This document shows positions 6,190 to 60,001 of a stretch of DNA of 64,000 nt, piece by piece (position 1 is the stretch's first letter; every line of letters starts with the position of its first letter). The position numbers were made by a program, and so were the translations under genes. A model generated the notes under the pieces. That model had not been told where the DNA came from, searched no databases, and saw only the letters and a list, made by a program, of their open reading frames with translations. Origin of the DNA: Planctomycetota bacterium (GTDB lineage: Bacteria; Planctomycetota; Planctomycetia; Pirellulales; UBA1268); contig JBAXUW010000001.1 in the NCBI GenBank assembly GCA_037129495.1, positions 9,970 to 73,969 of the forward strand, given 5' to 3'.

Positions 6190-6286
6190 TTTCACGCAAA
6201 CCACGACAGCCTGTCGTGTTTGCTTGGCCGGCCTCCGCCGGCTGGTGCTTTCCATCGCATCCATCCGACGTGGCCGTTTGTATTTC

Positions 6287-6349
6287 GTGGGATAAGATTT
6301 CGAGCTTGTCCGTTTCTTCGGCACGTTGGAAAACTCGCCGCCACGGGGG
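6287..6349 (+). repeat. palindromic intergenic repeat, full copy R1
   Basis: gtgggataagatttcgagcttgtcc-gtttcttc-ggcacgttggaaaactcgccgccacggggg. It aligns colinearly with 44946-45007 and with the split copy at 49795-49819/51015-51052. The two arms are imperfectly complementary. Confidence 0.85.
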
Positions 6350-6389
6350 CGCGGGCAGCCCGCCCCAGGCGGCTGGTACACTCCTCAGC

Positions 6390-17070: not shown

Positions 17071-19923
17071 TTACTCAGCAGTGGCTGGCAGCACGTTGAT
17101 CACTACCGGCGGCGACGACTGCTCTCCGTCGGCCTTGGTACGCAGGTGGAAGAGCCGCCGCTGCGGCTTCGCCACCGGTGCGGCGGTGATAAAAAACTCC
17201 CGCTCTTCCTGCCCTTCAACAATCAGCAGGCCGTTGAGCCCGATGTTATCCACAAACACCCCATACGGCAGGTTGCGGCCTGAATCGCTGCCGCCGAGTT
17301 CGATCCGATCCTTGAAGTCGTGCCGAGTGGCCTTGACCTTCGCGGTGATCGTCTGCCCTGGTCGGATCGAAAGCTCAAGCGGCTTGCCCGGCTCCTGTGT
17401 CACAGAGGATCGATCCTCACCCGGGAGGATTTCGACCGTAAGTTTCGGCTGCTCGGCGAGTTGGACATCGCCAATCGAGCCGAGATCCTGGACCACCTCC
17501 AGGCCATCCACCAAGGCCTTTGCCCGCACAGTCACGGCCTTGTCGGCGGCCTCGTCGGGCGGCATGCACTCAAGTCCAGCCGACAGCACACCGATCGCCT
17601 TCCGCTGGCCGGCAGGAATCTCGATCGGACCGTGGAAGACAAATCCCGCAGGCAAATTTTCGACTGTGATCACGATCGGCCCGCTGAAGCCCTCTGCCCG
17701 CGTGGCAGTGAACACCAGTTCGCGGCCGCTGCCAGGGCTGACCTTCGGATCCTTACCAGCGACCGCGACCGTAAACGCTGGAGCAGGGGGACGGATCGCG
17801 AGCGCATAGTGATAGTCGCCCGGATTTATCGCGGAGCCGCTCCCACGGACATCGGTGACCCGCACCACATACTCGCCATCGGCCGGGGCCTTGAACAAGA
17901 CCTGTGAATCGCTGCCCAACTGTCGCGTGGGCTCGTCGTCGTTTTCGTAGAAGATCGGCACCACCGGCAGGCCGTTTGGCTTTGGCTTACTGCCCGATTG
18001 CAGCGGCGTCACGATCCATGCCGGCTCGCCGAGGGCATGCGTGATCGCTGATGTGCCGAAGAAGGTGTGCCGGTCGCCCTCGCCTGGATAGACCGAGAAA
18101 CCGGAGTCGGGGCCATCGGGATACCGCCAGAGCTTCACGACCTCGCCGCTTGCATAGACATATTCGTCGAGCTCCATCTCCATCCAGTTTTGGAGCCGGT
18201 AGTCGCCCGACTGCTTGGAGTCTTTCCCGAGAAACGTAAACCATGAATCGCGGGTCGCCTGCAGGATGACCTGCACCACGGGATTGCCCGTGGAATCAAG
18301 CACCTCAATCCGCGAGTCAAGCTTCGATTTCGACCGCGCCGCATTGACGTCTAAAACGAGCAGCTCGCCAGCACGGGCCGCAAAGCGGAAGCAGTCGGGA
18401 TCACCCGCGCGGCCGATCGCCCCCTTGATCACGACCGGCAGAGAGACGGGCAGAGCCTGCGACGGGGTATCGTTTGGCTCCCGCTCGTCGAGCGTGACAG
18501 CGGCGTTACCAGCGCTTTCGGCAGCGCCGCCAACAAGCGCAGCGGGCCCGTCACGCCGAGTGACTGGTCCAGATGCAACGCCAGCGCCGAGCGCATCGAC
18601 TTCCAGAGCAACTGCCTCGAGCGAACCGTCCATCCGTCCGATCAGAAAGCTCTGAACATCCCGGGGCACGAGCACCGAGATGAGGTCTGGCTGCAGCGGA
18701 AAATCGTGCTCAAGCACGAGTTCTGGGACACTCCAGCACTTCAGCGAACGGTCTTCGGCCGACGTGAAGAGGTGCCGCCCGTCGGCCGAAAGCCCAATCG
18801 TAACAATCGGGCTCTCGTGGGCAAACAGCGCGTGGAGTGGAGGGTTGATCGCCGGCGCATCAAGCGCCGTGAGCTTCCAGAGATGGATCCTTTTGTCGCG
18901 TCCGGCGGCAATCACATGCCTGCCATCGGGGCTGAAGCAGACGCTTGAGATCTCCCCCTGCGGCTGGTTGAGCGTGTCGAGCCGAACGCCATCGACAGCT
19001 CGCCAGAGCTTGACTGTCTCGTCGGCACTGGCCGACGCGAGCAGCTTGCCGGTCGGATGCCAGGCCAGATCGAAGACGGCGCCGTTATGGCCGTCGATCG
19101 ACCGGATCAGCGACCCATCGGCCATGTTCCAGAGTTTGATCGACCGGTCGTAGCCTGCCGTGGCGAGCGTCTGCTCGTCAGGCGACAGCTCGGCGTCGTA
19201 GAGCAGGTCGCGGTGGCCTTCAAACCTGCTGATGACGGCGCCGCTGACTGCATCGCGAACCTGGGCCACGCCTGTGAGCCCGGTGATCCCACCGGCAAGG
19301 ACCAGCTGTCGGCCGTCGCGGCTGAAGTGCACCGCCGTGACCTTGCCCGGCAGGTCGGCCAGCGACAGAAGACCCGCTCCGCCAGCCGGAGCACGTGCAT
19401 CAAAAAGCTCGACCGTGCGGCCTCGCGCCACGACCAGCCGGCTGCCATCAGGGGAGACCGCTGCGGCAGTCACCGGCTTGATTCCCCTGTGAGGCGGCAG
19501 CTTCGGGACCGTGAGCGACCGGAGAATCGAGGCATCGCTCTGCGGGCCGGTGGCGCCGGCCGCAATCCAGGCCTTGAGCGTCGCTAGCTCCGCAGTCGGT
19601 ACCTGCGGCTCGTCGTCTGGCGGCATGTGGCCGCCGTCGGTGCTTTCGATCCGCTGAATCATGACCGATGCCGCGGCATCGCCGGGAGTGACCGAATCGC
19701 CCGATCCCTCGCCACCACGGCGGAGCGAGGCAAACCGCTCGACTGAAAGCTGCCCTGTCATGTCGCGGTCGTTGTGGCAGCCGGAGCAGTAGGTCCGTAA
19801 GATTGGCGTGATGTCTTGCTCATACGATGGCGCCGCGGCGACCGGCACCGCCGCGCAGACGCCGCCGACGGCGATTGCGGCCATGACGAGAAGGAGAAAC
19901 GGCTGTGTCCAATACCTGTTCAT
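17071..19923 (-). CDS. secreted c-type cytochrome domain / WD40 repeat / PPC-domain protein (PSCyt1-type)
   Basis: Signal peptide, heme motif CSGCHN, second planctomycete-cytochrome-like segment GGHMPPDD..LKAWIAAG, multiple WD repeats (LW, KLW, KCW ends), and a C-terminal pre-peptidase-like EREPNDTP..GDPDCFRF. Confidence 0.85.
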   Translation of the reverse strand: MNRYWTQPFLLLVMAAIAVGGVCAAVPVAAAPSYEQDITPILRTYCSGCHNDRDMTGQLSVERFASLRRGGEGSGDSVTPGDAAASVMIQRIESTDGGHMPPDDEPQVPTAELATLKAWIAAGATGPQSDASILRSLTVPKLPPHRGIKPVTAAAVSPDGSRLVVARGRTVELFDARAPAGGAGLLSLADLPGKVTAVHFSRDGRQLVLAGGITGLTGVAQVRDAVSGAVISRFEGHRDLLYDAELSPDEQTLATAGYDRSIKLWNMADGSLIRSIDGHNGAVFDLAWHPTGKLLASASADETVKLWRAVDGVRLDTLNQPQGEISSVCFSPDGRHVIAAGRDKRIHLWKLTALDAPAINPPLHALFAHESPIVTIGLSADGRHLFTSAEDRSLKCWSVPELVLEHDFPLQPDLISVLVPRDVQSFLIGRMDGSLEAVALEVDALGAGVASGPVTRRDGPAALVGGAAESAGNAAVTLDEREPNDTPSQALPVSLPVVIKGAIGRAGDPDCFRFAARAGELLVLDVNAARSKSKLDSRIEVLDSTGNPVVQVILQATRDSWFTFLGKDSKQSGDYRLQNWMEMELDEYVYASGEVVKLWRYPDGPDSGFSVYPGEGDRHTFFGTSAITHALGEPAWIVTPLQSGSKPKPNGLPVVPIFYENDDEPTRQLGSDSQVLFKAPADGEYVVRVTDVRGSGSAINPGDYHYALAIRPPAPAFTVAVAGKDPKVSPGSGRELVFTATRAEGFSGPIVITVENLPAGFVFHGPIEIPAGQRKAIGVLSAGLECMPPDEAADKAVTVRAKALVDGLEVVQDLGSIGDVQLAEQPKLTVEILPGEDRSSVTQEPGKPLELSIRPGQTITAKVKATRHDFKDRIELGGSDSGRNLPYGVFVDNIGLNGLLIVEGQEEREFFITAAPVAKPQRRLFHLRTKADGEQSSPPVVINVLPATAE

Positions 19924-24619: not shown

Positions 24620-24763
24620 ACTACCAACACACATCACGGCGAAAGTCCCCGCGAAGGAGACTTCTGCCGGCCCGGCGATGCACTACCAGAGACGGTAGAG
24701 CAAATCGAGGAGGAAAGCTTTAAAAACTTATCCCACGAAAGACAGAAGACGGCGTGGATGAAG
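24536..24763. repeat. ~200-bp composite intergenic element, copy B, plus a tail module
   Basis: agaacttatcccac ... aaaaacttatcccac, then gaaagacagaagacggcgtggatgaag. The tail is the reverse complement of the module seen at 49766-49800. Confidence 0.85.
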
Positions 24764-28341: not shown

Positions 28342-28588
28342 CCCCGCTGGTGAAACAGGCGCGCGATGAAGGACAGGCCAGACAATCTCATTTCCCCGTG
28401 GAGGCGAGTTTGTGAAGTGTGCCGTTCCCACGTAAACCAAAACGTATCCCACGCCAGCCGTAACGTGGGCTCACATTCTCTGGTTCTCCATTTCCTATCC
28501 TTCTGGCCCTCTCCTCTCAGAGGGGAAAGGCAGGTGTCTCACCTATCATTGGCACAGAGGGCCTGCCAGCTAGCCCTCACAGGGTGCG

Positions 28589-44829: not shown

Positions 44830-44945
44830 TTCTTGTGGGCTGAAGAGCAGAGTAAGAGGCTTTAAACTGGGGTGGAGCGGCGTCTTATCGGGAGGCCAAG
44901 TTTCACAAAAATCATCGTCTCCAGGCGACGCGGTCTTCTGTCTTT

Positions 44946-45007
44946 TGTGGGATACGTTTTCTAACTTGTCCGCTTCGGCAGGCTCGAAAAACTCGCCTCT
45001 ACGGGTG
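44946..45007 (+). repeat. palindromic intergenic repeat, full copy R2
   Basis: gtgggatacgttttctaacttgtcc-gcttc-ggcaggctcgaaaaactcgcctctacgggtgg, colinear with R1 and R3. Confidence 0.85.
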
Positions 45008-45079
45008 GTGGCTTTCCCCTGCTCCCGCATCTGCTAAAAACGGCACTTTCATTCTGCCCCGCCCTCACAGTTTCCGTGC

Positions 45080-48892: not shown

Positions 48893-49660
48893 ATGCTGTC
48901 ACCCCGAGCGTTGATCCTCCGAGCCCCGGGCACGAACTGCGACCATGAGACCGCCCATGCCTTTGAGCGGGCCGGTGCCATCGCTCGCCGCGTGCATGTG
49001 CGGGCGCTCACGCAGAGGCCGGCGCTTGCCGACGACTTCCAGATCCTCTGCATCCCCGGCGGCTTCTCCTACGGCGACGATATTGCCAGCGGCCGAATCT
49101 TCGCGATTGAGCTGAAGTCGCGGCTCGCCGAGTGCCTCGCCAAGTTTCGCGACCGCGGCGGTCTTATTCTCGGCATCTGCAATGGCTTTCAGGTGCTGCT
49201 CCAGACGGGCCTCTTGCTGGCGGATCCGCAGACCGGCGTGGCCCGTGCGAGTCTTGCCCACAATCACTCGGGTCTGTTCATCGATCGCTGGGTGCCGTTG
49301 CGGGCGGTGCCGGGCCGCTGCGTATTTCTGCAAGGCCTGGATCGCTTTGAGCTGCCGGTTGCCCACGGCGAAGGCCGGTTTGTGACCCGTTCTCCCGCAG
49401 ACTTCGCCGCGTTCGACGTTGCTGGCCAACTCGTGCTGCGGTACGGCGTCGATGAGCATGGGGTCGCCTCCAATCCCAACGGCGCGATGGGAGATGTGGC
49501 GGGCGTCTGCGACGAGACCGGCCGAATCTTCGGCCTCATGCCGCATCCGGAGCGGTTTATCGACGCCCTCCAATATCCAGCCTGGAACGGCCACCTCGAT
49601 CCTGCGGCAACCGGCGCCGGTCTGTCATTCTTCACAAACGCTATTCGATCGGTGTCGTAG
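48893..49660 (+). CDS. purQ: phosphoribosylformylglycinamidine synthase glutaminase subunit
   Basis: Class I amidotransferase triad context: GICNGFQVL, MPHPER. Confidence 0.95.
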   Translation: MLSPRALILRAPGTNCDHETAHAFERAGAIARRVHVRALTQRPALADDFQILCIPGGFSYGDDIASGRIFAIELKSRLAECLAKFRDRGGLILGICNGFQVLLQTGLLLADPQTGVARASLAHNHSGLFIDRWVPLRAVPGRCVFLQGLDRFELPVAHGEGRFVTRSPADFAAFDVAGQLVLRYGVDEHGVASNPNGAMGDVAGVCDETGRIFGLMPHPERFIDALQYPAWNGHLDPAATGAGLSFFTNAIRSVS

Positions 49661-49680: not shown

Positions 49681-49794
49681 GTGGGATAAGATTTCTAACT
49701 TCACGCGAAACATCGCATCCTGCGATTTTCACTTGGCAAACACAGTTTGCTGGTGGGAAGCGTCGCATCCATGCGCCGCAATCTTCTGTCTTTC
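49681..49794 (+). repeat. box repeat plus modules (copy C1)
   Basis: The head gtgggataagatttctaacttcacgcgaaacatcgc matches 10798-10845(-). The tail ...catccatgcgccgcaatcttctgtctttcg matches the reverse complement of 24737-24763. Confidence 0.75.
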
Positions 49795-49819
49795 GGGGGA
49801 TAAGATTTCTATCTTGTCC
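49795..49819 (+). repeat. palindromic repeat R3, 5' arm (interrupted by the IS)
   Basis: gggggataagatttctatcttgtcc. The last 9 nt (atcttgtcc) are duplicated at 51006-51014. Confidence 0.85.
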
Positions 49820-49889
49820 CAATCCTGTTCGGCACGGCAGTTGCTGCAGTTCAAGTAGCTCAACAAGGGAGTGTGGGTTGAGTTGCGCG

Positions 49890-50798
49890 ATGGGCTTGAA
49901 GCATTTCAAGGCGCTGCGGGGCTTGATCGAGCGGCTGCACTTCGCAGGGACGCAGCGGGATAAGACAGGCAATCGTGATCTGCACATGGATCAGTACTGC
50001 TCACTGCTCCTGCTGTGGTTTTTTAGTCCCATGGTCGACAGCCTCCGCGGGAGGCTAGCAGGCCGGCACGCTCGACAAGGTACGCAAGCGCTTCGGTGTC
50101 GGACGTGCCTCGCGGGGCTCGCTTTCAGGGGGCGTCGCTGTGCGGCTATCGTCTGCACACTCAGTTGGAAGTGTTGCGTGGAATTCCGTCACGGATCGAC
50201 GTGACGCCCGCTAGTCCAAAGGGTGAAAACGACGAGCGGGCGGTCCTCGCCCGCTCGGTCGAACCATACCGGATGGACGTGATGGATCGCGGCTATGCCC
50301 AGTTCTCGCTGTGGAATGTGATCGTCGCCAAGGGCAGCAGTTCCTGCTGTCGCGTCAGGGACAACTCAGCGCATGACGTCGAGCGAACCCTGGAGCTGAC
50401 CGATGCCGATCGTGCGGCTGGTGTGGTCAGTGACGAAGTGGTCGTGTTCGGCCGCCCCAAAGCACGGGTCATCCTCTGACCATCCGGTGCGAATCGTGAC
50501 TCATCGCCTCGATCTGCCCGCTGAACTCAGCGGAGAGATCTATCGGCTGCGGTGGCTGATCGAGACGTTCTTTCGGATGTTCAAGCAACTGCTGGGCTGT
50601 CGCCATCTGCTTTCCACCAAGCAGACCGGAGTGGAGATCCAGGTGTTCTTTGGAATTATCGCCTGCCTGTTGATCCTCCTCTCCACGGGCCGTAAGCCGA
50701 CGAAGCGAACCTTTGAGATGGTCTGCTTTTATCTCTCAGGCTGGGCAAGCGTGAATGAAATGGAGCGGCATATCGAAGCACTTCCTAGGCCGGCGTGA
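49890..50798 (+). pseudogene. IS4-family DDE transposase, frameshifted and internally deleted
   Basis: The coding signal is split over track ORFs 49419..50204, 50096..50479 and 50403..50798. The last carries a canonical Y-2-R-3-E-6-K motif (YRLRWLIETFFRMFK). The N-terminal part is MGLKHFKALRGL..SLRG, after which similarity continues in another frame past a TAG at 50056. The element is shorter than intact IS4 members. Confidence 0.75.
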
Positions 50799-50942
50799 TC
50801 CTTCTGCGCACCGAACGGCGCCGCAGCGATTACTGCTGCGCCGGTGACGACAACCACGCCCATCCTGCCTCGCGCTCCTGATGCTGGAGAGCATGGCGCA
50901 ACAAGCAAGCTGCAACTAGAACGCAGCAGCAGCCTCAACTCC

Positions 50943-50967
50943 GGACAAGTTAGAAAACTTATCCCAC
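50943..50967 (-). repeat. box half-copy lying inside the right end of the IS
   Basis: ggacaagttagaaaacttatcccac is the reverse complement of the repeat 5' arm gtgggataagttttctaacttgtcc. It sits 10 nt inside the right IR. Confidence 0.8.
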
Positions 50968-51005
50968 AGAGGAGGGAGCAGCAACTGCCGTGCCGAACAG
51001 GATTG

Positions 51006-51052
51006 ATCTTGTCCTCTTCTTCGGCAAGTTGGAAAACTCGCCTCCACGGGGG
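51006..51052 (+). repeat. palindromic repeat R3, TSD copy + loop + 3' arm
   Basis: atcttgtcc|tcttcttcggcaagttggaaaactcgcctccacggggg. Removing the IS and one TSD copy restores a unit colinear with R1 and R2. Confidence 0.85.
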
Positions 51053-51130
51053 AGGGCTATGAAAAAGAGAAAGCCCCGGCCGCATGGCCGGGGCTTTCGT
51101 CGAATCGCGAGCCGATCGCGAGGGATCCGA

Positions 51131-52309
51131 TCAATACTTGGACTTATCGCCGAGGTGCTCGTTGCCGGCGCGGGTCACGAGCGCGGAGAAGACGCGGATC
51201 GTGACGTCGCTGGAGATCAGCTTCGTGCTGCCATCGCCAAAAACGACGTTGGCGCCGGCCGGATGGAACGCGAAGACCTCGCTGCCGCCGTCGGTGCCAT
51301 AGTAGCCCGAGCTGAACACCGCGGTGAGCATGCTCTCGCCGTTGGTGGCGTTGACCACCTTCGTCGGACTGGAGCGGAAGGCGTTGCCGTTGACATTGGA
51401 ACCGTCGATCGAGATGTCAGACGCCGGCCGCACCCAGCCGCCGGCGTTGACCCGCAGCGTCGGGAACTTGTCGGTCACACCGTCGGCACGGCTTCGCTTC
51501 CGATAGACGAAGGGCCGGCCGGCGCTCTCCGCAATCAGGATCGTCGTCGAGAGGCCGTCGGTCGCGTCACTGAGCTTCGGCTTGTAGCCGTCGCCATAGT
51601 CCTTGGACAGAAGGCCGTCACCGGAACTCGCCGCCGTGTTGCCCTTGTCGACAACCGGAGCCGCCGCGGCGGCGATGTCGGCCTTGTTATCGTCGGGCAC
51701 AAGCGGCGACGACGCGTTGGCCAAGGCGTTGTCGACGTAGATCGTCGGCCCGTAGTCAGATGGCGCGCAAAACCCAGGAGAGCTTCCCGCGTTTGAGAAA
51801 GCGGTGCCGCTGGCGACGGTGATGGCCTTCACATAGGTGGTCGGCACGGCATACGGCTGGCTGCTCGACTGCGGATCGTAGTCAAAGCGAGTGTCTGGGT
51901 TCGGGGCCGACGGGCACTCGTATCCAGCGATCCGGGTCGCCGCCAGCACGTAGTTGGGGATCGTGTAGCCCGGCCCGGCGGTATTGTTTGACCATGTCTG
52001 CGACGGGTCGTACCGGTCAAAGAGGGCCGCCTGTTCCATGTAGGGAAGGATCCGGACGAAGAATCCGAGCCGTAGGCCGGCGGTGCGGAGACTGTTGGGG
52101 AGGGCACCACCGGAGCCATCGGCAAACGTCAGCGTGGCGATGCCGAGTTGCTTTAAATTGTTCGAGCAACTGTTGCGGCGGGCGGATTCCCGGGCTGCCT
52201 GTACGGCCGGAAGCAGCAGGCCAACAAGCGTGCCGATGATGGCAATCACGACCAGCAACTCGACGAGGGTGAAGCCCTGACGGGCTCTCGATGGAGACAG
52301 AACTGACAT
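51131..52309 (-). CDS. DUF1559 domain protein with a prepilin-type N-terminal cleavage/methylation motif
   Basis: [44 protein letters not shown] is the hallmark N-terminus of the planctomycetal DUF1559 family. Confidence 0.9.
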
Positions 52310-52427
52310 GATGAAAACTCCTGGAAAGGGGTGATTAAGCGAATCGAACCAATCAAAACTGACGAACGAATCGGAGAACGAATTGCGTAGACCGTGAAGC
52401 GACGGCTATCACGGTCTTTGGAGACCG

Positions 52428-53141
52428 TCACTTCCGGTGCTTGCCGGCCGGGGCCTGGCCCCTGCGAATTGAGACCTGGAGACCCGAGAGGTCTTCCAGG
52501 ATCTCAAACCGAAGGGGCGTCGTCTCGGAAGACTTGTAGGACGTGGGGATCGGCGCGGCCGATTCAGCGGGCCTGACCGTGATGGTGTAGGTGCCGGAGG
52601 GTAGGCCTGCGGCAGCGGCGAAGTGAAACGAGCCGTCGGCTGCCGTCAGGATTGTCTGCGCGGCGACGTCTACCGCGCTGGGCTTCGGCGGGCCGCCAAA
52701 CTTCTGGAACGTCAGCGTGACACGGCCCAGCGGCTTGCCATCAAGCGTGGCTATGCCCGAGACGGCATGCCGGGCCAGCAGCGGAAGCGTGTTGATGACG
52801 GCGAAAGTAAGCACGAGGCCGACGCCTGCCAGCGCGAGACCAAGCAGGAACCACCGAGGCATGCCGAACGAATCGACCGTTGCCGCTACATTCGAGGTGA
52901 GGGTCTCAACGCCACGGCTCACAGCCGACTCCTCCACACCGTTATCCGCGGCGCGGTTTCTCCACTGGTGGCCCTGCTTGAAGCTCTGGATTACGGCGTT
53001 GGCGGCCCGCGAGGAGGCAGATGAACTGCTGTCGGCGCGGCGGCTGGTCGACCGCCGGGGGCGGGGAGTACCCGAGGCGATGGAGAGTGCTGCAGAGGCC
53101 ATATCGAGTGCTCCCTTGAAGCCAGTGGGTCCACCGGTCAT
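52428..53141 (-). CDS. hypothetical membrane-anchored protein with a carboxypeptidase-regulatory-like beta-sandwich C-terminus
   Basis: Track ORF 52428..53204 starts at TTG; the first ATGs are at 53141 and 53102. TM helix WFLLGLALAGVGLVLTFAV. The C-terminus GRVTLTF..DGSFHF..GTYTITVRP resembles CarboxypepD_reg-like partners of DUF1559 genes. Confidence 0.5.
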   Translation of the reverse strand: MTGGPTGFKGALDMASAALSIASGTPRPRRSTSRRADSSSSASSRAANAVIQSFKQGHQWRNRAADNGVEESAVSRGVETLTSNVAATVDSFGMPRWFLLGLALAGVGLVLTFAVINTLPLLARHAVSGIATLDGKPLGRVTLTFQKFGGPPKPSAVDVAAQTILTAADGSFHFAAAAGLPSGTYTITVRPAESAAPIPTSYKSSETTPLRFEILEDLSGLQVSIRRGQAPAGKHRK

Positions 53142-53317
53142 TCCGGTCGGCGTTGCGTGTATCGAGAACGTTGCAGAGCGAGTGAAAAACGACTTAAGTA
53201 CCAATATATTATAATATCGATCATATTTGTCAAGTAGATGATATAAAAATCAAAATGGCTATTTTTATGGGATAAAAGACATAAAAAAGATTTTTTTCTA
53301 TTCAGAAAGCAGAGAAA

Positions 53318-53392
53318 CACGATTAATCATTAGCAATTTGCTAATGATTAATCGTGGCATAAAAAAAGCGTGGGCCGTCTGCGCGACCGGCA
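53318..53392 (-). terminator. candidate tandem terminator of the cys transporter operon (GC hairpin + U7, then a 39-nt perfect AT-rich palindrome)
   Basis: On the minus strand, after the cysA stop (53393): gccggtcgcgcagacggc..cacgcttttttt, then cacgattaatcattagcaa-a-ttgctaatgattaatcgtg (53356..53318), followed by tttctctgctttctg. The terminator role is inferred; an operator role is not excluded. Confidence 0.45.
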
Positions 53393-54478
53393 TCAAATGA
53401 TGTATTCCGGGTCGGGAAGGAAAACCCGCACCTTACGGGGCGTGATCGTGACCCGTTCGCCCGGCTGTAAAGCCAATTCCCGGACCGTGTCCGAGGGCAT
53501 GTCAACGTGCAACTCGCTCTTGCTGCCGTCGGGCTGGCATGAGATCCGCGCTATCGCACCGCTCCGGGTGATCCGGAGCACACTGGCCGGCAGGCTGCCC
53601 GTGCCCTCGCTAGCGTCGGCGGGCTTGCTGGACGCGCGAGCGATGTCGAGCTCGTGGGGCCGCAGATAGACCTGGGCTGGCCGGGCCTGCGAGTGCGGAT
53701 AGTCCGGATAGGCGATTGGGATGCCGTGCCAGAAGGCCTGGCCCTTCTCGACGCGGCCGTGGAAGACGTTCACGTTGCCGAGAAAGTCCATCACAAACGG
53801 CGTGGCCGGATGCTCGAAGACTTCGTCGGGGGTGCCCCGCTGTTCGATCTTGCCACGGTTCATTACGACCACCTCGTCGGCCAGTTCAAAGGCCTCCTCC
53901 TGATCATGCGTGACGAAGACGCTCGTCATGCCGATCTCGTCGTGCAGCCGCCGCAGCCATTGGCGTAGCTCGACGCGGACCTTGGCGTCTAAGGCGCCGA
54001 AGGGCTCGTCGAGCAGCAGGATCTTTGGCCGGATGGCCAAGGCCCGCGCAAGAGCTACCCGCTGCCGCTGCCCGCCCGAGAGCTGCGCCGGCTTGCGGCC
54101 GCCGAGGCCGTCGAGCCGCACCAGATGCAGCAGTTCTTGAACCTTCGTCTCCACCTCGCGGTTCGGTATCTTGCGGATCCGAAGCCCGAAGGCGATGTTC
54201 TCGAACACGCTCATGTGCCGAAAGAGAGCGTAGTGCTGAAATACGAAGCCCACCTCCCGCTGTCTGGCATGGCGGTCGGTGATATCGGAGCCGTCCTCCT
54301 CGATGCGTCCTGAGTCGGGCCATTCGAGCCCAGCAATGATTCGCAGCAGGGTCGTCTTGCCGGATCCCGATGGACCGAGCAGCGCCAGGAGTGTGCCCTC
54401 CGGCACCTCGAGCGAGACGCTGTCGAGCGCCTTGAATGTTCCGAATGATTTCGAGACGTCACGGATGTGAATGCTCAT
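53393..54478 (-). CDS. cysA: sulfate/thiosulfate ABC transporter ATP-binding protein
   Basis: Walker [10 protein letters not shown], signature [15 protein letters not shown], Walker B LLLDEPF, and a C-terminal TOBE-like domain. It is last in the sbp-cysT-cysW-cysA order. Confidence 0.95.
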
Positions 54479-55398
54479 GCGACGGGGCCTTTCGTGGAAG
54501 TGGTCAGACTGGCGTCGTGCGGCGTGTTGTCGAGGGAATCGGGCAGTGACCGGGCGGCTGCCAGTGCGTGGGCCTCAGCCTCCATGTGGCGTTCGATCAC
54601 CACCTTGGCCACGAGCGTGACGAGCGCCAGCCCGGCCAACACGCTGGCCACCGCCATCGAGGCCGGCGTGCGGTATTCCTGGAAGAGTTTTTCGACCCGC
54701 AGCGGCATCGTGTCGGTGGCGCCGGCGATATGGCCGCTCACGACGTAGACCGCGCCGAATTCGCCCATGGCGCGGGCGTTGGCCAGCACGATGCCATGCA
54801 GCAGCGCCCAGCGGATGTTGGGAAGTGTGATCCGGGTGAACACCTGCCAGCCGCTGGCTCCGAGGCTCACGGCGGCCAGTTCCTCTTCCGGGCCAATCGC
54901 CTCCATCACCGGGATCAATTCGCGGACGACCAGCGGCAGCGTCACAAACGTCGTTGCCAGCACCAGCCCGGGCCAGGCAAAAATCACCTTCCAGCCGAGT
55001 GACTGCAGCATCGGCCCGAGCAGCCCCTGCCGGCCGAAGATCAGCACGAGAGCCAGTCCAGCCACGACCGGCGAGACCGAGAAGGGCACGTCGCAGAGCG
55101 TGATCAAGAGCGAGCGTCCCGGGAACCGAAATCGCGAGACCAGCCAGGCCGTGGCGATGCCAAACACGGTGTTGATCGCCACGGCAAGCGGAGCCACCGT
55201 CAGCGACAGCCAGATCGCATGCCGCGTGTCCGGATCGTGGGCGAGGGCCCGCCACCAGGCGGCCGGGCCTTCGGCAAACGCCTCGGCGAAGACGCTCGCC
55301 AGCGGCACGACGATGAGCAGGCCGACGACGCCGACGGCGGCGGCAATGAGCAGCCTTTCGGTGAGCGGGCTGGCGGAGGTGATCGTTGGTTGTGGCAT
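54475..55398 (-). CDS. cysW: sulfate ABC transporter permease
   Basis: Polytopic BPD-type permease, second permease in the operon, with a 4-nt overlap with the cysA start. It has a C-terminal ~40-aa hydrophilic extension. Confidence 0.85.
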
Positions 55399-55458
55399 GC
55401 TATTTGGGAGCGTTTGTTCGAGGGGTAGAAAAAGTCGTGGGGCTCGTGCGACGCCGGC

Positions 55459-56307
55459 CTACTGTGCGTTGCGGGCGACCCGCTGCTGCAGTCCATTGAC
55501 GATCACGAGCAGGGTGATCGACATCGCCAGCAGGACGACGGCGATGGCGGTCGCCTCTGCGTAGGCGAATTCCTCGAGCCGCGACACGATCAGCACCGGG
55601 GCGATTTCAGTCTTGAACGGCATGTTGCCCGAAATGAAGACAACCGCACCGTATTCGCCGAGCGCCCGGGCCAGCGCCAGAGCAAACCCGGTAATGACCG
55701 CCGGGAAGATGGCCGGCAGGATGACTCGCAGGAAGGTCTGCCTTCGGGAAGCTCCGAGCATCCGCGACGCCTCCTCGGTATCGCGGTCGAGGCTCTCGAG
55801 CACCGGTTGCACGACGCGAATCGTGAACGGCAGGCTCACGAACACAAGCACGAGCACGATGCCCAGCCACGAATAGGCGGCCTGGACCCCCATCGGCACG
55901 AGGAACCGTCCCAGCCAGCCCCGCTCCACGTAGAGCGTCGAATAGACGAGCCCCGCGACGGCTGTGGGCAGCGCAAGTGGCACGTCGACGAGTGAATCGA
56001 GCAGGCGTCGGCCAGGAAAATTGATCCGCACGAGAACCCAGGCGACCAGCAGGCCGCAGACAGAACTTGCGATCGCCGCCGTCAGCGAAGCGCCCAATGA
56101 CACCGCATAGGCCGCGCGGGCCCGCGGTGTCCATGCCGCCGCGAGGAATTCGGTCGGCCCGAGCGATGCCGCCCGCAGTCCAAGCACGGCCAGCGGAACG
56201 ATCACCATCGCCGTGATCATCAGCGTCGTGATCGCGGCGCTCATGCCAAACCCCGGGAGCACGGAGCGTCGCCGCGCGGTCTGGCGAGCGGGTGTGGGCA
56301 TGTTCAT
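55459..56307 (-). CDS. cysT: sulfate ABC transporter permease
   Basis: BPD-type permease with an EAA-like loop (EEASRMLGASRRQTFLRVILP), first permease after the binding protein. Confidence 0.85.
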   Translation of the reverse strand: MNMPTPARQTARRRSVLPGFGMSAAITTLMITAMVIVPLAVLGLRAASLGPTEFLAAAWTPRARAAYAVSLGASLTAAIASSVCGLLVAWVLVRINFPGRRLLDSLVDVPLALPTAVAGLVYSTLYVERGWLGRFLVPMGVQAAYSWLGIVLVLVFVSLPFTIRVVQPVLESLDRDTEEASRMLGASRRQTFLRVILPAIFPAVITGFALALARALGEYGAVVFISGNMPFKTEIAPVLIVSRLEEFAYAEATAIAVVLLAMSITLLVIVNGLQQRVARNAQ

Positions 56308-57446
56308 GTGCCACCCTGTTTTTTTGCCTGATTGCCAGCTTGCTTTGCAGGCTGCTTGTCAGGCTGGGGCTGGTAGATGGCATCGAACACGCCGCCTTCG
56401 CCGAAGAATTTCTTCATGGCGTTGTTCCAGTCGCCGGCGACGAAAGCGATATCGAAGGTCTCGATTTCAGGCCAGGTCTCGCCCGCGGCGGGGGGCGGTG
56501 GAGTGTCACCCCAAGGCCTCAGGTGATGGCTGGCGATGATCGCCCTGCCCTCGGGGGAATAGAGGAATCCGAGGTAGGCCTCAGCGGCATGCCGTGAGGC
56601 TTTGCGGTCGGCATTCTGGTCGACCACGGCCACGGGCGGGTCGACCCGGATCGATCGCTTGGGGTAGACAATCTCGAGTTCTCCCTTCGATTCGTTCACC
56701 TCCAGGTGGGCCTCCTGCTCAAATGTGAGGTGCACGTCGCCGATCCCCTTTTGCGAAAAAGTAGCGGTGGCGGCCCGGGCGCCGGTGTCGAGTACGGGGG
56801 TGCGGCGATAGATCGCCGACACAAATTTCTCCGCGTCTGCCTCGCTGCCACCGGCCGCCAGAATCGCGCCCCAGGCTGCGAGAAAGCTATATTTCCCGTT
56901 GCCCGAGGTCTTGGGGTTGGGCGTGATGATCGAGATGTTGCCGTGATCGAGGTCCGGCCAGTCAGCGATCTTCTGCGGATTGCCCTTGCGGACAACAAAG
57001 ACAACGACTGAGTGATAAGGAAGCGAGTTATTGTCGTAGCGTTTCTGCCAGTCGGCCCGGATCAGGCCGCTCTTGGCAATCGCTTCGACATCGGGCCAGG
57101 TGGCAAGAGTGACAACATCGGCGTCGAGCCCGTCGATCACCGCGCGAGACTGACTGCCCGAGGCGGCATGCGACTGCTTGACCGTGACGATCGTGCCGTG
57201 CTGCTCCTCGTAGTGCTTTGCGAAAGCGACGTTGATATCGCGATAGAGTTCGCGAGTTGGGTCGTAGGAGACATTGAGCAGTTCGACAGCCTTGGGGCGA
57301 CTGGCCCCGTCGGAAGAAGAAGTGTTTGAGCTGGAGCATCCGGTGAAGGCGGCGACCAGCAGCAGGGCAAGGCCTGACGCCAACGGGATGGCAGAGAAAA
57401 AAGCCCGCTTTGAACGTTGCATTGCAGACCGCCTTGGGAGTGTCAT
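56304..57446 (-). CDS. sbp: sulfate-binding periplasmic lipoprotein
   Basis: Start trimmed to ATG 57446 (or 57422), because the track ORF to 57548 runs into AT-rich non-coding-looking sequence. Lipobox AAFTGC. Colinear by eye with Sbp/CysP (LLNVSYDPTRELY, SGSQSRAVIDGL, ITPNPKTSGNG). Confidence 0.85.
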   Translation of the reverse strand: MTLPRRSAMQRSKRAFFSAIPLASGLALLLVAAFTGCSSSNTSSSDGASRPKAVELLNVSYDPTRELYRDINVAFAKHYEEQHGTIVTVKQSHAASGSQSRAVIDGLDADVVTLATWPDVEAIAKSGLIRADWQKRYDNNSLPYHSVVVFVVRKGNPQKIADWPDLDHGNISIITPNPKTSGNGKYSFLAAWGAILAAGGSEADAEKFVSAIYRRTPVLDTGARAATATFSQKGIGDVHLTFEQEAHLEVNESKGELEIVYPKRSIRVDPPVAVVDQNADRKASRHAAEAYLGFLYSPEGRAIIASHHLRPWGDTPPPPAAGETWPEIETFDIAFVAGDWNNAMKKFFGEGGVFDAIYQPQPDKQPAKQAGNQAKKQGGT

Positions 57447-57705
57447 GGTGCTTGGGGGTGGAGCCACTGGTTTCGAGTAGAATCCACAGACTTCTAACAG
57501 ATAAATATAAAGATCGTCAACTTTGTAATGTATTCTTGAATTAAACACGTAAGTAGTTTTCTTGAAAGGGTTTGCGTCGAAAAAAAACTTGATCAGAAGA
57601 GGTTTGCTGGGGCTAAAACCTGAGCAAGAAGATCTTCTGCGATATATTCACGAAGGCCGGTACGGCAGATTCCCCCGATAAACCCCGCTTCAGGAGTAGT
57701 CCGTC

Positions 57706-58311
57706 ATGATTGATCAGTTGCTCGAAGGCAACCGGCAGTTCGTCGAAAACGAGTATCGCCCGAATGCCGACTACTACCGCACGATCGCCAATCGGCAGAC
57801 GCCGAAGGTGCTCTGGATCGGCTGCTCCGACTCCCGTGTCAGCGAGCACCAGATGACCGGCTCGAAGCCGGGCACGATGTTTGTGCATCGCAACGTCGCC
57901 AACATCATCGCTTTTAACGATGTCAACATCTCATCGATTCTCGAATATGGCGTCGTGCACCTGAAGATCGAAGACATCATTGTCTGCGGCCACACCCGCT
58001 GCGGCGGCATTGCCGCGATCGAGGATGGCGTTCACGAAAATTACATTTCCGACTGGCTCTGCATAGCTTCGGGGGCCAAGGTGATCGCCGATCGCGTGGC
58101 AGCCGAACGTGGACTGTCGCGGGATGAGAAGCTGGAGTTACTGACGGCTGAGAACGTCAAACTCCAGATCAGGCACCTCCAGAATCTCGCCCTCATTAAA
58201 AACCAGCATGCGAAGGGCCCGTTGCCGCGGATCCACGGCTGGCTCTATCGCGTGGAAGACGGCACAATCGAGGTGCTGGTCGACGGTCGCAAGGCTACGG
58301 CGAAGGCGTAG
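57706..58311 (+). CDS. beta-class carbonic anhydrase
   Basis: AGGAG sits 9 nt upstream of the ATG. Zinc-site motifs CSDSR and HTRCGG. Confidence 0.9.
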   Translation: MIDQLLEGNRQFVENEYRPNADYYRTIANRQTPKVLWIGCSDSRVSEHQMTGSKPGTMFVHRNVANIIAFNDVNISSILEYGVVHLKIEDIIVCGHTRCGGIAAIEDGVHENYISDWLCIASGAKVIADRVAAERGLSRDEKLELLTAENVKLQIRHLQNLALIKNQHAKGPLPRIHGWLYRVEDGTIEVLVDGRKATAKA

Positions 58312-59694: not shown

Positions 59695-59934
59695 CGGAAA
59701 CTGCTCCCCACATCGGCTGATTGTGAGTGCTTTAGTTGCGTTGGCAGTTGCGGGACACTGAAGGTGGTTGCACGTGGCGTGCCAAACGACCTCTGGCTTA
59801 GAGCGAGGCTGCTTGAAAGCGGTGTTTGCCCAAAAAACGCAGGTGCGCTCTGGCGGGCGGGCTCGGGAGCACGGCCCGCCTGCTCAAAAAAAGGGCAGGG
59901 ACTGCTGCAGCCGGGGGCAAAGCAACACGGAATT

Positions 59935-59964
59935 GGACAGGTTGGAAAACTTATCCCACGGGGG
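59935..59964 (-). repeat. box half-copy upstream of the HDAC-like gene
   Basis: ggacaggttggaaaacttatcccacggggg matches the 3' arm of the palindromic repeat, with the box restored to ..cttatcccac. Confidence 0.75.
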
Positions 59965-60001
59965 AGAGAGACCGGCGGCGGCAGCCAGTTAGAATTCACG
60001 C

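Follow-up and report, generated by a model that had tools for sequence, protein, structure and literature searches.

How does a dead transposable element come to lie, with perfect ends, inside a palindromic repeat of its host? The question is raised by a stretch of 64,000 nucleotides from a bacterium of the Planctomycetota (Pirellulales, UBA1268; assembly GCA_037129495.1, contig JBAXUW010000001.1, positions 9,970 to 73,969), here called the window, in which the gap between a purQ-like gene and a DUF1559 gene holds an insertion sequence (IS) of 1186 bp. We find it quite probable that this element, of the IS4 family and IS4Sa-like, transposed into a host unit resembling a doublet of repetitive extragenic palindromic (REP) sequences, at a sequence preferred by its lineage, and decayed afterwards. 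The coordinates of all features are given in Table 1.

A dead element with intact ends

The initial annotation of the window, made from the sequence alone, had described exact 28-bp inverted repeats (IRs) and a 9-bp target-site duplication around the element, and both descriptions hold. The left and right repeats (IRL and IRR) are reverse complements at 28/28 positions, and ATCTTGTCC directly abuts the outer side of each, an identity of 9 nt at fixed positions that has a chance probability of about 4e-6. With up to 3 mismatches allowed, the IR matches the 64 kb in just these 2 places, where shuffled sequences lead one to expect 0. Excision of 49820-51014 restores, as had been claimed, a repeat unit colinear in alignment with those at 6253-6362 and 44913-45019, and GATAAGATTTCTATCTTGTCCTCTTCTTCGGCAAGTTGG is the predicted uninterrupted junction of the empty site beside the DUF1559 gene.

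The same ends recur in related elements. The outer 18 nt of IRL, CAATCCTGTTCGGCACGG, occur in at least 119 metagenomic contigs, and many intact relatives (L006, L035, L046, L156 and others) have an identical outer 17-18 nt. The two ends of such relatives agree over 17-18 nt and then share just a ...TTGC... pattern; the 28/28 match of the window copy is longer than most, and needs no special explanation because 56 bp are a small mutational target. Perfect 9-bp direct duplications flank 12/38 scored end pairs, the window included; others belong to L145 and to 7 copies of the metagenome-assembled genome (MAG) HK-STAS-PLAN-19. Elsewhere, the termini bound transposase genes of the family or internally deleted IR-IR derivatives of 123-990 bp. 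Of the two findings by which the initial annotation would have failed, termini that recur as a host repeat and an intact copy with other ends, neither was observed.

Between its ends, the window copy encodes a transposase just in pieces spread across three frames, with a TAG codon at 50056-50058 and a stop at 50796-50798. Alignment to four relatives, complemented by a view at the protein level, resolves the lesions into a 68-bp deletion at ~49892/3 across the region of the native start codon (a fortuitous in-frame ATG remains at 49890), a +1 insertion near 50048-50050, a change of CAG to TAG at 50056-50058, a 182-bp deletion at ~50135/6 that removes the AVDGS segment with the first catalytic Asp, another +1 insertion near 50473-50476, and an 87-bp deletion at ~50501/2. 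The gene had been called dead, broken over three frames and deprived of its central region while retaining its YREK motif; translation and alignment bear this out, and the missing region can now be specified as the 182-bp deletion, accompanied by the two others. About 75% of the gene is kept. With three deletions, two frameshifts, one stop and the loss of the first Asp, the copy at 49820-51005 cannot encode an active enzyme or move by itself. In an intact relative, the segment removed by the 182-bp deletion (window ~50127-50141) is flanked by two imperfect GG(A/G)GG(A/C)GT motifs, which suggests a slipped-strand or microhomology-mediated event.

The remnant is still sufficient to assign the element. 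Its C-terminal fragment matches PF01609 (DDE_Tnp_1) with 36.5 bits (cut-off 23), and the encoded peptide YRLRWLIETFFRMFK is spaced as Y(2)R(3)E(6)K. The frameshift-corrected translation has 6327 homologues, the best of which are 404-409 aa long and labelled 'IS4 transposase'. The proteins P0001 and P0005 score 185 and 170 bits with NF033592, the NCBIfam equivalog model of IS4 (cut-off 115), and fall far below the cut-offs of the IS701, IS1634, IS5 and IS982 models. In P0001, the closest relative, which is intact, the catalytic residues are D133 (AVDGS), D206 (MMDRGY) and E327, separated by 72 and 120 residues, and the YREK motif is YRLRWMIETFFRMFK; in the window copy, the segment of the first Asp is deleted and the second Asp and the Glu are present. 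The IS4 family is defined by a D(60-110)D(100-150)E spacing together with Y(2)R(3)E(6)K, and its elements have one transposase open reading frame (ORF), terminal IRs and a target duplication that spans roughly one helical turn and, depending on the subgroup, measures 7-13 bp (PMC2266710). The intact relatives have one ORF of 404-409 aa. Judged by DDE spacing, YREK, profile, and IRs with duplication alike, the element can be assigned to the IS4 family, as first proposed. Within the family, the IS4Sa subgroup has ends of the form CA------T, direct repeats of 8-10 bp and a size of 1150-1750 bp, and the IS4 subgroup has the pattern -AATR--------WTW and direct repeats of 10-13 bp (PMC2266710). The element's end, CAATCCTGT, starts with CA (positions 1-2) and carries T as its ninth nucleotide, its duplication has 9 bp, and its full-length relatives measure 1442-1650 bp. 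Ends, duplication length and relatives' size fit the IS4Sa pattern, and we call the element IS4Sa-like; it shows neither the end pattern nor the 10-13-bp direct repeats of the IS4 subgroup.

The sole named match of P0001 is a weak one to 'IS4-like element IS4Bsu1 family' (24% identity), and its Sinorhizobium matches have 24-26%. A genome scan placed the relatives almost all in Planctomycetota MAGs, including Pirellulales and Planctomycetaceae, and a plasmid collection held distant relatives only (the best, on an Isosphaeraceae plasmid, is 45% identical). The nearest intact sequence is a 404-aa relative in L001, with ~82% nucleotide identity in three blocks, and the exact 24-nt core of the IR had 0 matches in 185,579 species genomes, so that no parent copy is known. 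Either the source species or the IS at 49820-51005 itself is absent from these representative genomes.

Target choice and the host repeat

The repeat that was hit has a recognisable composition. Its first module, REP1, reads GTGG-GATAAGnT-TTCT-AaCTTGTCC and is followed by a short linker and an inverted REP2, which reads GT(G/A)G-AGGCGAGTT-TTCC-AACTTGCC on the other strand. A GTGG or GTAG head followed by a stem-loop is present in 7/8 folded window copies (the interrupted REP1 has GGGG), and the stems vary between families yet stay complementary (AAGAT/ATCTT, AAGTT/AACTT, AGGC/GCCT, AAGC/GCTT). An nhmmer profile of three full units finds ~8 full or partial copies in the 64 kb, all within gaps between long ORFs, and further ones in sibling contigs. 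On this evidence the repeat appears REP-doublet-like, i.e., two inverted small stem-loops with GTGG/GTAG heads, as in bacterial interspersed mosaic elements (BIMEs) and REP doublets forming hairpins (REPINs). It shares with these the head, the short imperfect palindrome, the inverted doublets, the intergenic dispersal and the clustered mosaics. It differs in that its arms are complementary over only ~60% in this genome and that minimum-energy folding does not predict the long arm-to-arm hairpin. The element had been said to target the arm/loop junction of that hairpin; the insertion does lie within the repeat, but it is better described as sitting at the 3' foot of the first of two stem-loops. 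No Rfam family matched anywhere in the window at gathering thresholds, so the repeat is not a described RNA family. A further idea, that the repeat is a miniature inverted-repeat transposable element (MITE) of the IS, was rejected, as the genomic units are without CAATCC... termini.

What the element's lineage prefers can be read from the flanks of its relatives. In 102 unique metagenomic flanks (excluding a freshwater group described below), the consensus toward the IS is gaAAAnGGGGaCnGTCC|IR, with ~0 information further out, and the implied target is the quasi-palindrome AAAAnGG-GGACNGTCC-CCnTTTT. On the right side of the window insertion, GAAGAAGA-GGACAAGAT corresponds to one half-site. When 62,760 positions are ranked by a weight matrix from which the window was excluded, the real site comes 51st (top 0.08%) and the equivalent junction in the unit at 6303 comes 14th. 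The nearest lineage repeatedly uses AAAAGA-GCTGCGTCC-CCTTTTC, to which the window's ATCTTGTCC-TCTTCTTC is similar; AAAAGAGCTGCGTCCCCTTTTC is, like the REP doublet, a candidate target site. We also considered that the flank motifs are part of a longer inverted repeat of the IS, and rejected this: the 9 nt are direct in two-ended elements, and the motif is reverse-complemented on the other side.

Outright repeat targeting is seen in two independent sub-lineages. In HK-STAS-PLAN-19, 7/10 fetched copies have direct 9-bp duplications, and each of these seven splits a GTGG-headed palindrome. Five have entered a GTGGGATAGGCTTCCAGCCTGTCA...TGACAGGCTGGAAGCCTATCCCAC doublet or a near variant of it, duplicating GCTGGAAGC, GCTAGAAGC or GCTTCCAGC; L172 uses a variant arm, and L149 a different palindrome. 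The doublet architecture is perfect in this MAG, and the duplication spans the apex of the GTGG-headed stem-loop. Its other copies are L147 and L166, with REP-arm flanks and no direct duplication, and L158, which is not in a REP. Insertions of the freshwater group all fall on the same 9 nt of one ~82-nt host repeat (duplication CCATCCTGG/GCATCCTGC), a repeat and cut position that make up 39/141 unique flanks. The choice of site in the window can be explained by the sequence preference of the lineage, and recognition of structure would not be needed.

The insertion may be pictured as follows. A DDE transposase would excise the IS and integrate it by a 9-bp staggered cut at the 3' foot of the first stem-loop, a cut-and-paste chemistry that we infer from the mechanism of the family. 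The site carries half of the preferred quasi-palindromic target, namely GTCC ending the duplication and then a YCTTYTT arm, and each repeat unit of the genome would supply this sequence at its REP1/linker junction. The element would have landed in a repeat because target choice is sequence-directed and the repeat units supply that sequence. The transposase gene would have decayed after insertion, through the three deletions, the two frameshifts and the stop.

Such behaviour is not new in kind, because ISRm22 of Sinorhizobium meliloti, an element of the IS4 family and IS4Sa subgroup, is already documented in REPs: 10/10 of its copies lie there (PMC1525189), with conserved left and right target arms (PMC2266710). 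The window element resembles it as a DDE/YREK IS4-family element in a REP, and the CA------T ends and 8-10-bp duplications fit. It differs in its Planctomycetota host, in being dead, and in a distant relationship (the Sinorhizobium matches to P0001, at ~24-26%, are not confirmed as ISRm22). A REP copy inside the element, present in the window, is not described for ISRm22 in the excerpts of PMC1525189 and PMC2266710. Other families also insert specifically into palindromic intergenic repeats: IS1397 and ISKpn1 (IS3 family), and IS621, ISPpu9, ISPpu10 and ISPa11 (IS110 family) (PMC1525189). The HK-STAS-PLAN-19 relatives, whose duplication spans the apex of a GTGG-headed stem-loop, resemble them in this. 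IS110 elements use a DEDD enzyme guided by a bridge or seek RNA and have neither duplication nor inverted repeats (PMC11208160, PMC11187229); these IS3 and IS110 elements have other transposases and chemistries, whereas the window element has classic IRs and a 9-bp duplication. A symmetric quasi-palindromic preference over duplication and arms, here AAAAnGG-GGACNGTCC-CCnTTTT, is shared with IS231A, IS10 and IS50; target specificity is described for IS231, duplications for IS10 and IS50 (PMC2266710), and a 9-bp consensus for Tn5 (PMC1525189). The consensus itself differs from theirs, and here it is derived from metagenomic flanks alone. The results extend REP-targeting by IS4-family elements, as in ISRm22, to another phylum, and describe a widespread, mostly planctomycete clade that inserts with a definable target consensus, several sub-lineages of which hit the REP-like repeats of their hosts.

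Could the landing in a repeat be a coincidence, reflecting only a loose preference, e.g., for A/T-richer intergenic DNA? There is one copy of the IS to judge from, a single half-site fits the consensus, and fifty other window positions score higher, most of them outside repeats. Yet repeats cover ~1% of the window and a matrix trained on other sequences puts the site among its best 0.08%, while the seven duplicated copies of one MAG, the single cut position in the freshwater repeat and the repeated use of GCTGCGTCC by the nearest lineage all speak for sequence-directed choice; we regard coincidence as unlikely. The view that the 28-bp termini belong to some larger repeat of the host, with the transposase remnant an unrelated passenger, is essentially refuted: the two copies in 64 kb exactly bracket the remnant, and intact relatives have the same ends, equally distant from the gene. 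It could draw on the fact that about half of the metagenomic loci with the 18-mer are without transposase match, but most of these are contig ends or short IR-IR derivatives with their own 9-bp duplications; solo IRs lying 46-127 bp outside the left end in L001, L144 and L145 are the other point in its favour.

Perfect ends around a wrecked gene would also be explained if the element were still mobile in trans, as a precursor of a MITE. IR-IR derivatives that have lost internal sequence, 123-990 bp long and flanked by 9-bp duplications, are indeed common in the clade, and the 28/28 IRs exceed the 17-18 nt common to the two ends of most relatives. Like MITEs, which have intact ends and a deleted interior, the copy falls within a series of clade sizes from 123 bp to full length; unlike them, it holds most of its gene, is single-copy as far as visible and gives no sign of movement after its decay. 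The exact remnant ORF, searched in public assemblies, was found at this locus only, and no intact partner with matching ends was found in the 64 kb, in ~100 kb of sibling contigs or in the species genomes; with so small a mutational target, perfect ends are unremarkable. Mobility in trans is improbable on these grounds. Contigs of two other samples contain this insertion at 99.95% identity, and the copy is a fixed relic in one strain lineage, represented by samples ERZ27300155 and ERZ27300057, rather than an active non-autonomous element.

Several observations weigh against transposition into a repeat at a preferred sequence. The exact IS is available in one copy, so that repeat targeting rests on relatives and matrix rank rather than on replicate insertions. 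Of the two half-sites, just the right one matches here (9.0 bits, against 0.8 bits for the left), and the matrix partly rewards A-richness in a G+C-rich genome. The AAAAGA-GCTGCGTCC-CCTTTTC site of the nearest lineage lies ~20 nt past a REP2-like stem, not between two stems. Single-strand folding of most units is weak (in 2/3 units z is about 0, no better than for shuffled sequence); the local REP1 hairpin at the insertion locus alone stands out (z = -2.5). Some metagenomic copies (L046, L050, L144, L147) have inverted rather than direct flanks. The empty site was not recovered, since the sibling strains have deleted the whole segment, and L018, the contig that approaches it from the side of the DUF1559 gene, ends within the doublet at 51024. 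Finally, since no intact copy closer than ~82% was found, the ancestral sequence and the time of decay are inferred, as is the order of events.

A host-type repeat in the element's tail

The ~180 bp of non-coding sequence between the transposase stop and IRR had first been taken as an oddity. This does not stand: intact relatives carry non-coding tails of 165-310 bp, the first ~70 nt of which, including the CGCAGC...GCTGCG hairpin, are conserved in alignment, and the tail is a normal feature of the lineage, not a product of decay, because these relatives have it. A second claim, that the tail contains a nested half-copy of the host repeat, is correct as to its presence at 50943-50967, but the copy is not private to this element. 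A homologous stem-loop, GGACAAGTT(A/G)AAAACTTGCCGCCAC, lies 5-10 nt inside IRR at seven loci of the nearest lineage (L001, L111, L144, L145, L168, L170 and, in triplicate, L165), which have diverged in coding and even in IR sequence. The hairpins of the window and L001 are left unaligned by MAFFT and were detected by a fuzzy pattern search; both share the upstream context TCAACTCC(C)GGACAAGTT. The window copy is exactly the host REP1 GTGGGATAAGTTTTCTAACTTGTCC (GGGATAAG...), whereas relatives carry GTGGCGGCAAG... REPs are known to resemble subterminal IS hairpins (PMC3333891). That IS copies of this clade carry the type of repeat they target beside their own IRR is a recurring pattern, for which we found no description in the literature.

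We rate passive exchange of the tail copy with host REPs as more likely than a functional role. The tail copy would then be cargo, acquired from host repeats by homologous recombination, gene conversion or REP mobility and without any part in transposition, a reading to which we give slightly less than an even chance. It accounts for the host-type sequence of the window copy against the GTGGCGGCAAG... of relatives, for the host-specific repeats in the tails of other sub-lineages (the 82-nt unit in L100 and L046, tandem arrays in L125, L136 and L165), and for solo modules of IRR plus REP doublet (L144, L145) that resemble recombination products. It sits less easily with a position fixed at 5-10 nt inside IRR, with retention across copies whose IRs and coding sequences diverge by ~18% or more, and with the upstream TCAACTCC(C)GGACAAGTT common to the window and L001. 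Functional readings of the tail copy (tethering or homing, a binding site for a host factor, a terminator) are less probable, but fixed position and long retention count for them. One of these is that the stem-loop, or the whole host repeat unit, beside IRR is a homing device of the planctomycete IS4Sa-like clade: a repeat-binding protein of host or IS would bridge the IS end to genomic repeats and direct insertion there, and recombination would keep the tail matched to the host repeats. We consider this doubtful; if true, it would be a tethering-type target selection for a classic DDE insertion sequence and would couple IS spread to populations of REPs and REPINs. The repeat in the tail makes it possible to test how repeated palindromes are found by a DDE transposase, and how IS and REPs exchange sequence.

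In the freshwater sub-lineage, the full ~82-nt host repeat lies within the 3' tail (L100 1900-1981, L046 353-434) and also occurs free-standing, e.g., at L047 7668-7746 and L036 4797-4857. The derivative L125 and the tails of L136 and L036 consist largely of tandem REP-like stem-loops.

The locus, its siblings and its relatives

The purQ/DUF1559 gap is convergent, as initially stated, because the purQ-type amidotransferase gene is on the + strand and the DUF1559/N-methyl gene on the - strand. Its left part proved to be the mosaic of truncated repeat modules that had been proposed (Table 1).

Table 1. Coordinates of the element, the interrupted repeat and their surroundings in the window
Feature	Position	Strand	Remarks
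Complete decayed IS4-family element, 1186 bp, non-autonomous	49820-51005	+	Perfect 28-bp IRs and 9-bp duplication; alignment to relatives
Left inverted repeat (IRL), 28 bp	49820-49847	+	Starts 5'-CA; relatives' left ends align to it
Right inverted repeat (IRR)	50978-51005	-	28/28 complementary to IRL
Target-site duplication, 9 bp, left copy	49811-49819	+	ATCTTGTCC; also the 3' strand of the REP1 stem
Target-site duplication, 9 bp, right copy	51006-51014	+	ATCTTGTCC; a 9-bp duplication is the rule in relatives
Transposase pseudogene (DDE_Tnp_1)	49890-50798	+	Second Asp (MDRGY) and YREK block kept
Non-coding 3' tail of the IS	50799-50977	+	Small hairpin CGCAGC-GATTACT-GCTGCG at 50822-50840; tail found in intact relatives
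Subterminal REP-like stem-loop carried by the IS	50943-50967	-	Minus strand GTGGGATAAGTTTTCTAACTTGTCC, host REP1 type; ends 10 nt inside IRR
REP1 of the interrupted host REP doublet	49795-49819	+	GGGGGATAAGATTTCTATCTTGTCC
Linker and REP2 of the interrupted doublet	51015-51047	+	Linker TCTTCTTC (51015-51022); REP2 GGCAAGTTGGAAAACTCGCCTCCAC (51023-51047), with GTGG head on the minus strand
Nest of truncated repeat modules	49681-49794	+	REP1 cut after AACTT (49681-49701); leader-type module; GCAAACACAGTTTGC hairpin and truncated REP head (49732-49763); leader of the interrupted unit
G+C-rich inverted repeat, 13 bp, terminator-like	51069-51098		GAAAGCCCCGGCC/GGCCGGGGCTTTC; between REP2 and the stop of the DUF1559 gene; context only
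purQ-like GATase_5 gene	48893-49660	+	
DUF1559/N_methyl gene	51131-52309	-	

Other full or partial copies of the REP-doublet family, all intergenic, lie at 6253-6362, 24710-24756, 28389-28453, 44913-45019 and 59929-59968. In the unit at 44913-45019, the head of the second module is GTAG, and sibling strains conserve the singlet copy at 59929-59968. A second leader-type module, CTTGGCAAAC(A/G)CAGTTTGCTGGTGGGAAGCG, with a perfect 6-bp hairpin (GCAAAC...GTTTGC), is found at 49732-49763 of the window and at 18573-18604 of the sibling contig L007; it precedes a REP head variant in both places, so the repeat family has at least two types of upstream module.

For this genome, an inert relic in a non-coding convergent gap is of little consequence, and the repeat-rich spot is also a breakpoint of rearrangement between strains. 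Eight sibling contigs (L007-L009, L011-L014, L016) are ~99.7% identical to the window across purL-purQ, with an identical purQ protein, and diverge at 49710/49711. The five that reach past the breakpoint (L007, L008, L009, L011, L013) are without 49711-58145 (8435 bp), a segment that contains the repeat nest, the dead IS, the DUF1559 gene, ABC-transporter genes and most of a beta-carbonic-anhydrase gene. They carry instead 152 bp from the left end of an IS3-like element (TGACGTTCTCC...; MEKKHFSEEQIAFVLRQAESGTSVAE; HTH_Tnp_1 E=0.002), fused through a GGCTGAG microhomology into the carbonic anhydrase gene at 58146. It looks like the siblings underwent an IS-adjacent deletion and the window keeps the ancestral arrangement. 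The IS3-like element lies directly after the truncated REP1 (49681-49701 plus CACGCGAAA), ~110 bp from the IS4 insertion, and two IS families have therefore hit the same repeat nest.

Among the relatives, short IR-IR derivatives of 123-470 bp without transposase are found in L030, L079, L085, L090, L092, L097, L117, L125 and L130; the duplication is perfect at 9 bp in L085 and near-perfect in L079. Extra solo IRs outside the ends of an IS, at the distances given above, are located at 1275-1401 and 3050-3176 of L144, 682-807 of L145 and 2859-2901 of L001. Behind the solo IR of L144 and L145 come a complete REP doublet and the canonical target AAAAGAGCTGCGTCC; L144 shows the modules in mirror image on its two sides, and its 9-nt flanks are inverted instead of direct. 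Such modules could have arisen by recombination of tail REPs with genomic ones or by several hits on the same site, or could be artefacts of assembly. Inverted 9-nt flanks are also seen in L147 and L166 (both from HK-STAS-PLAN-19), L046 and L050, e.g., GTGGGATAGGCTTCCAGC|IS|GCTGGAAGCCTATCCCAC, and may stem from assembly chimeras, from inversions, or from recombination between insertions in both arms of a REP doublet. In L066, L082, L083, L091 and L106, loci unrelated to each other, the target motif is present as a short tandem duplication just outside the IR (e.g., GGGAAAAGGGGACAG x2, GGGACAGTCA x2); an IS that inserted and excised repeatedly at a single site may have left these duplications as footprints.

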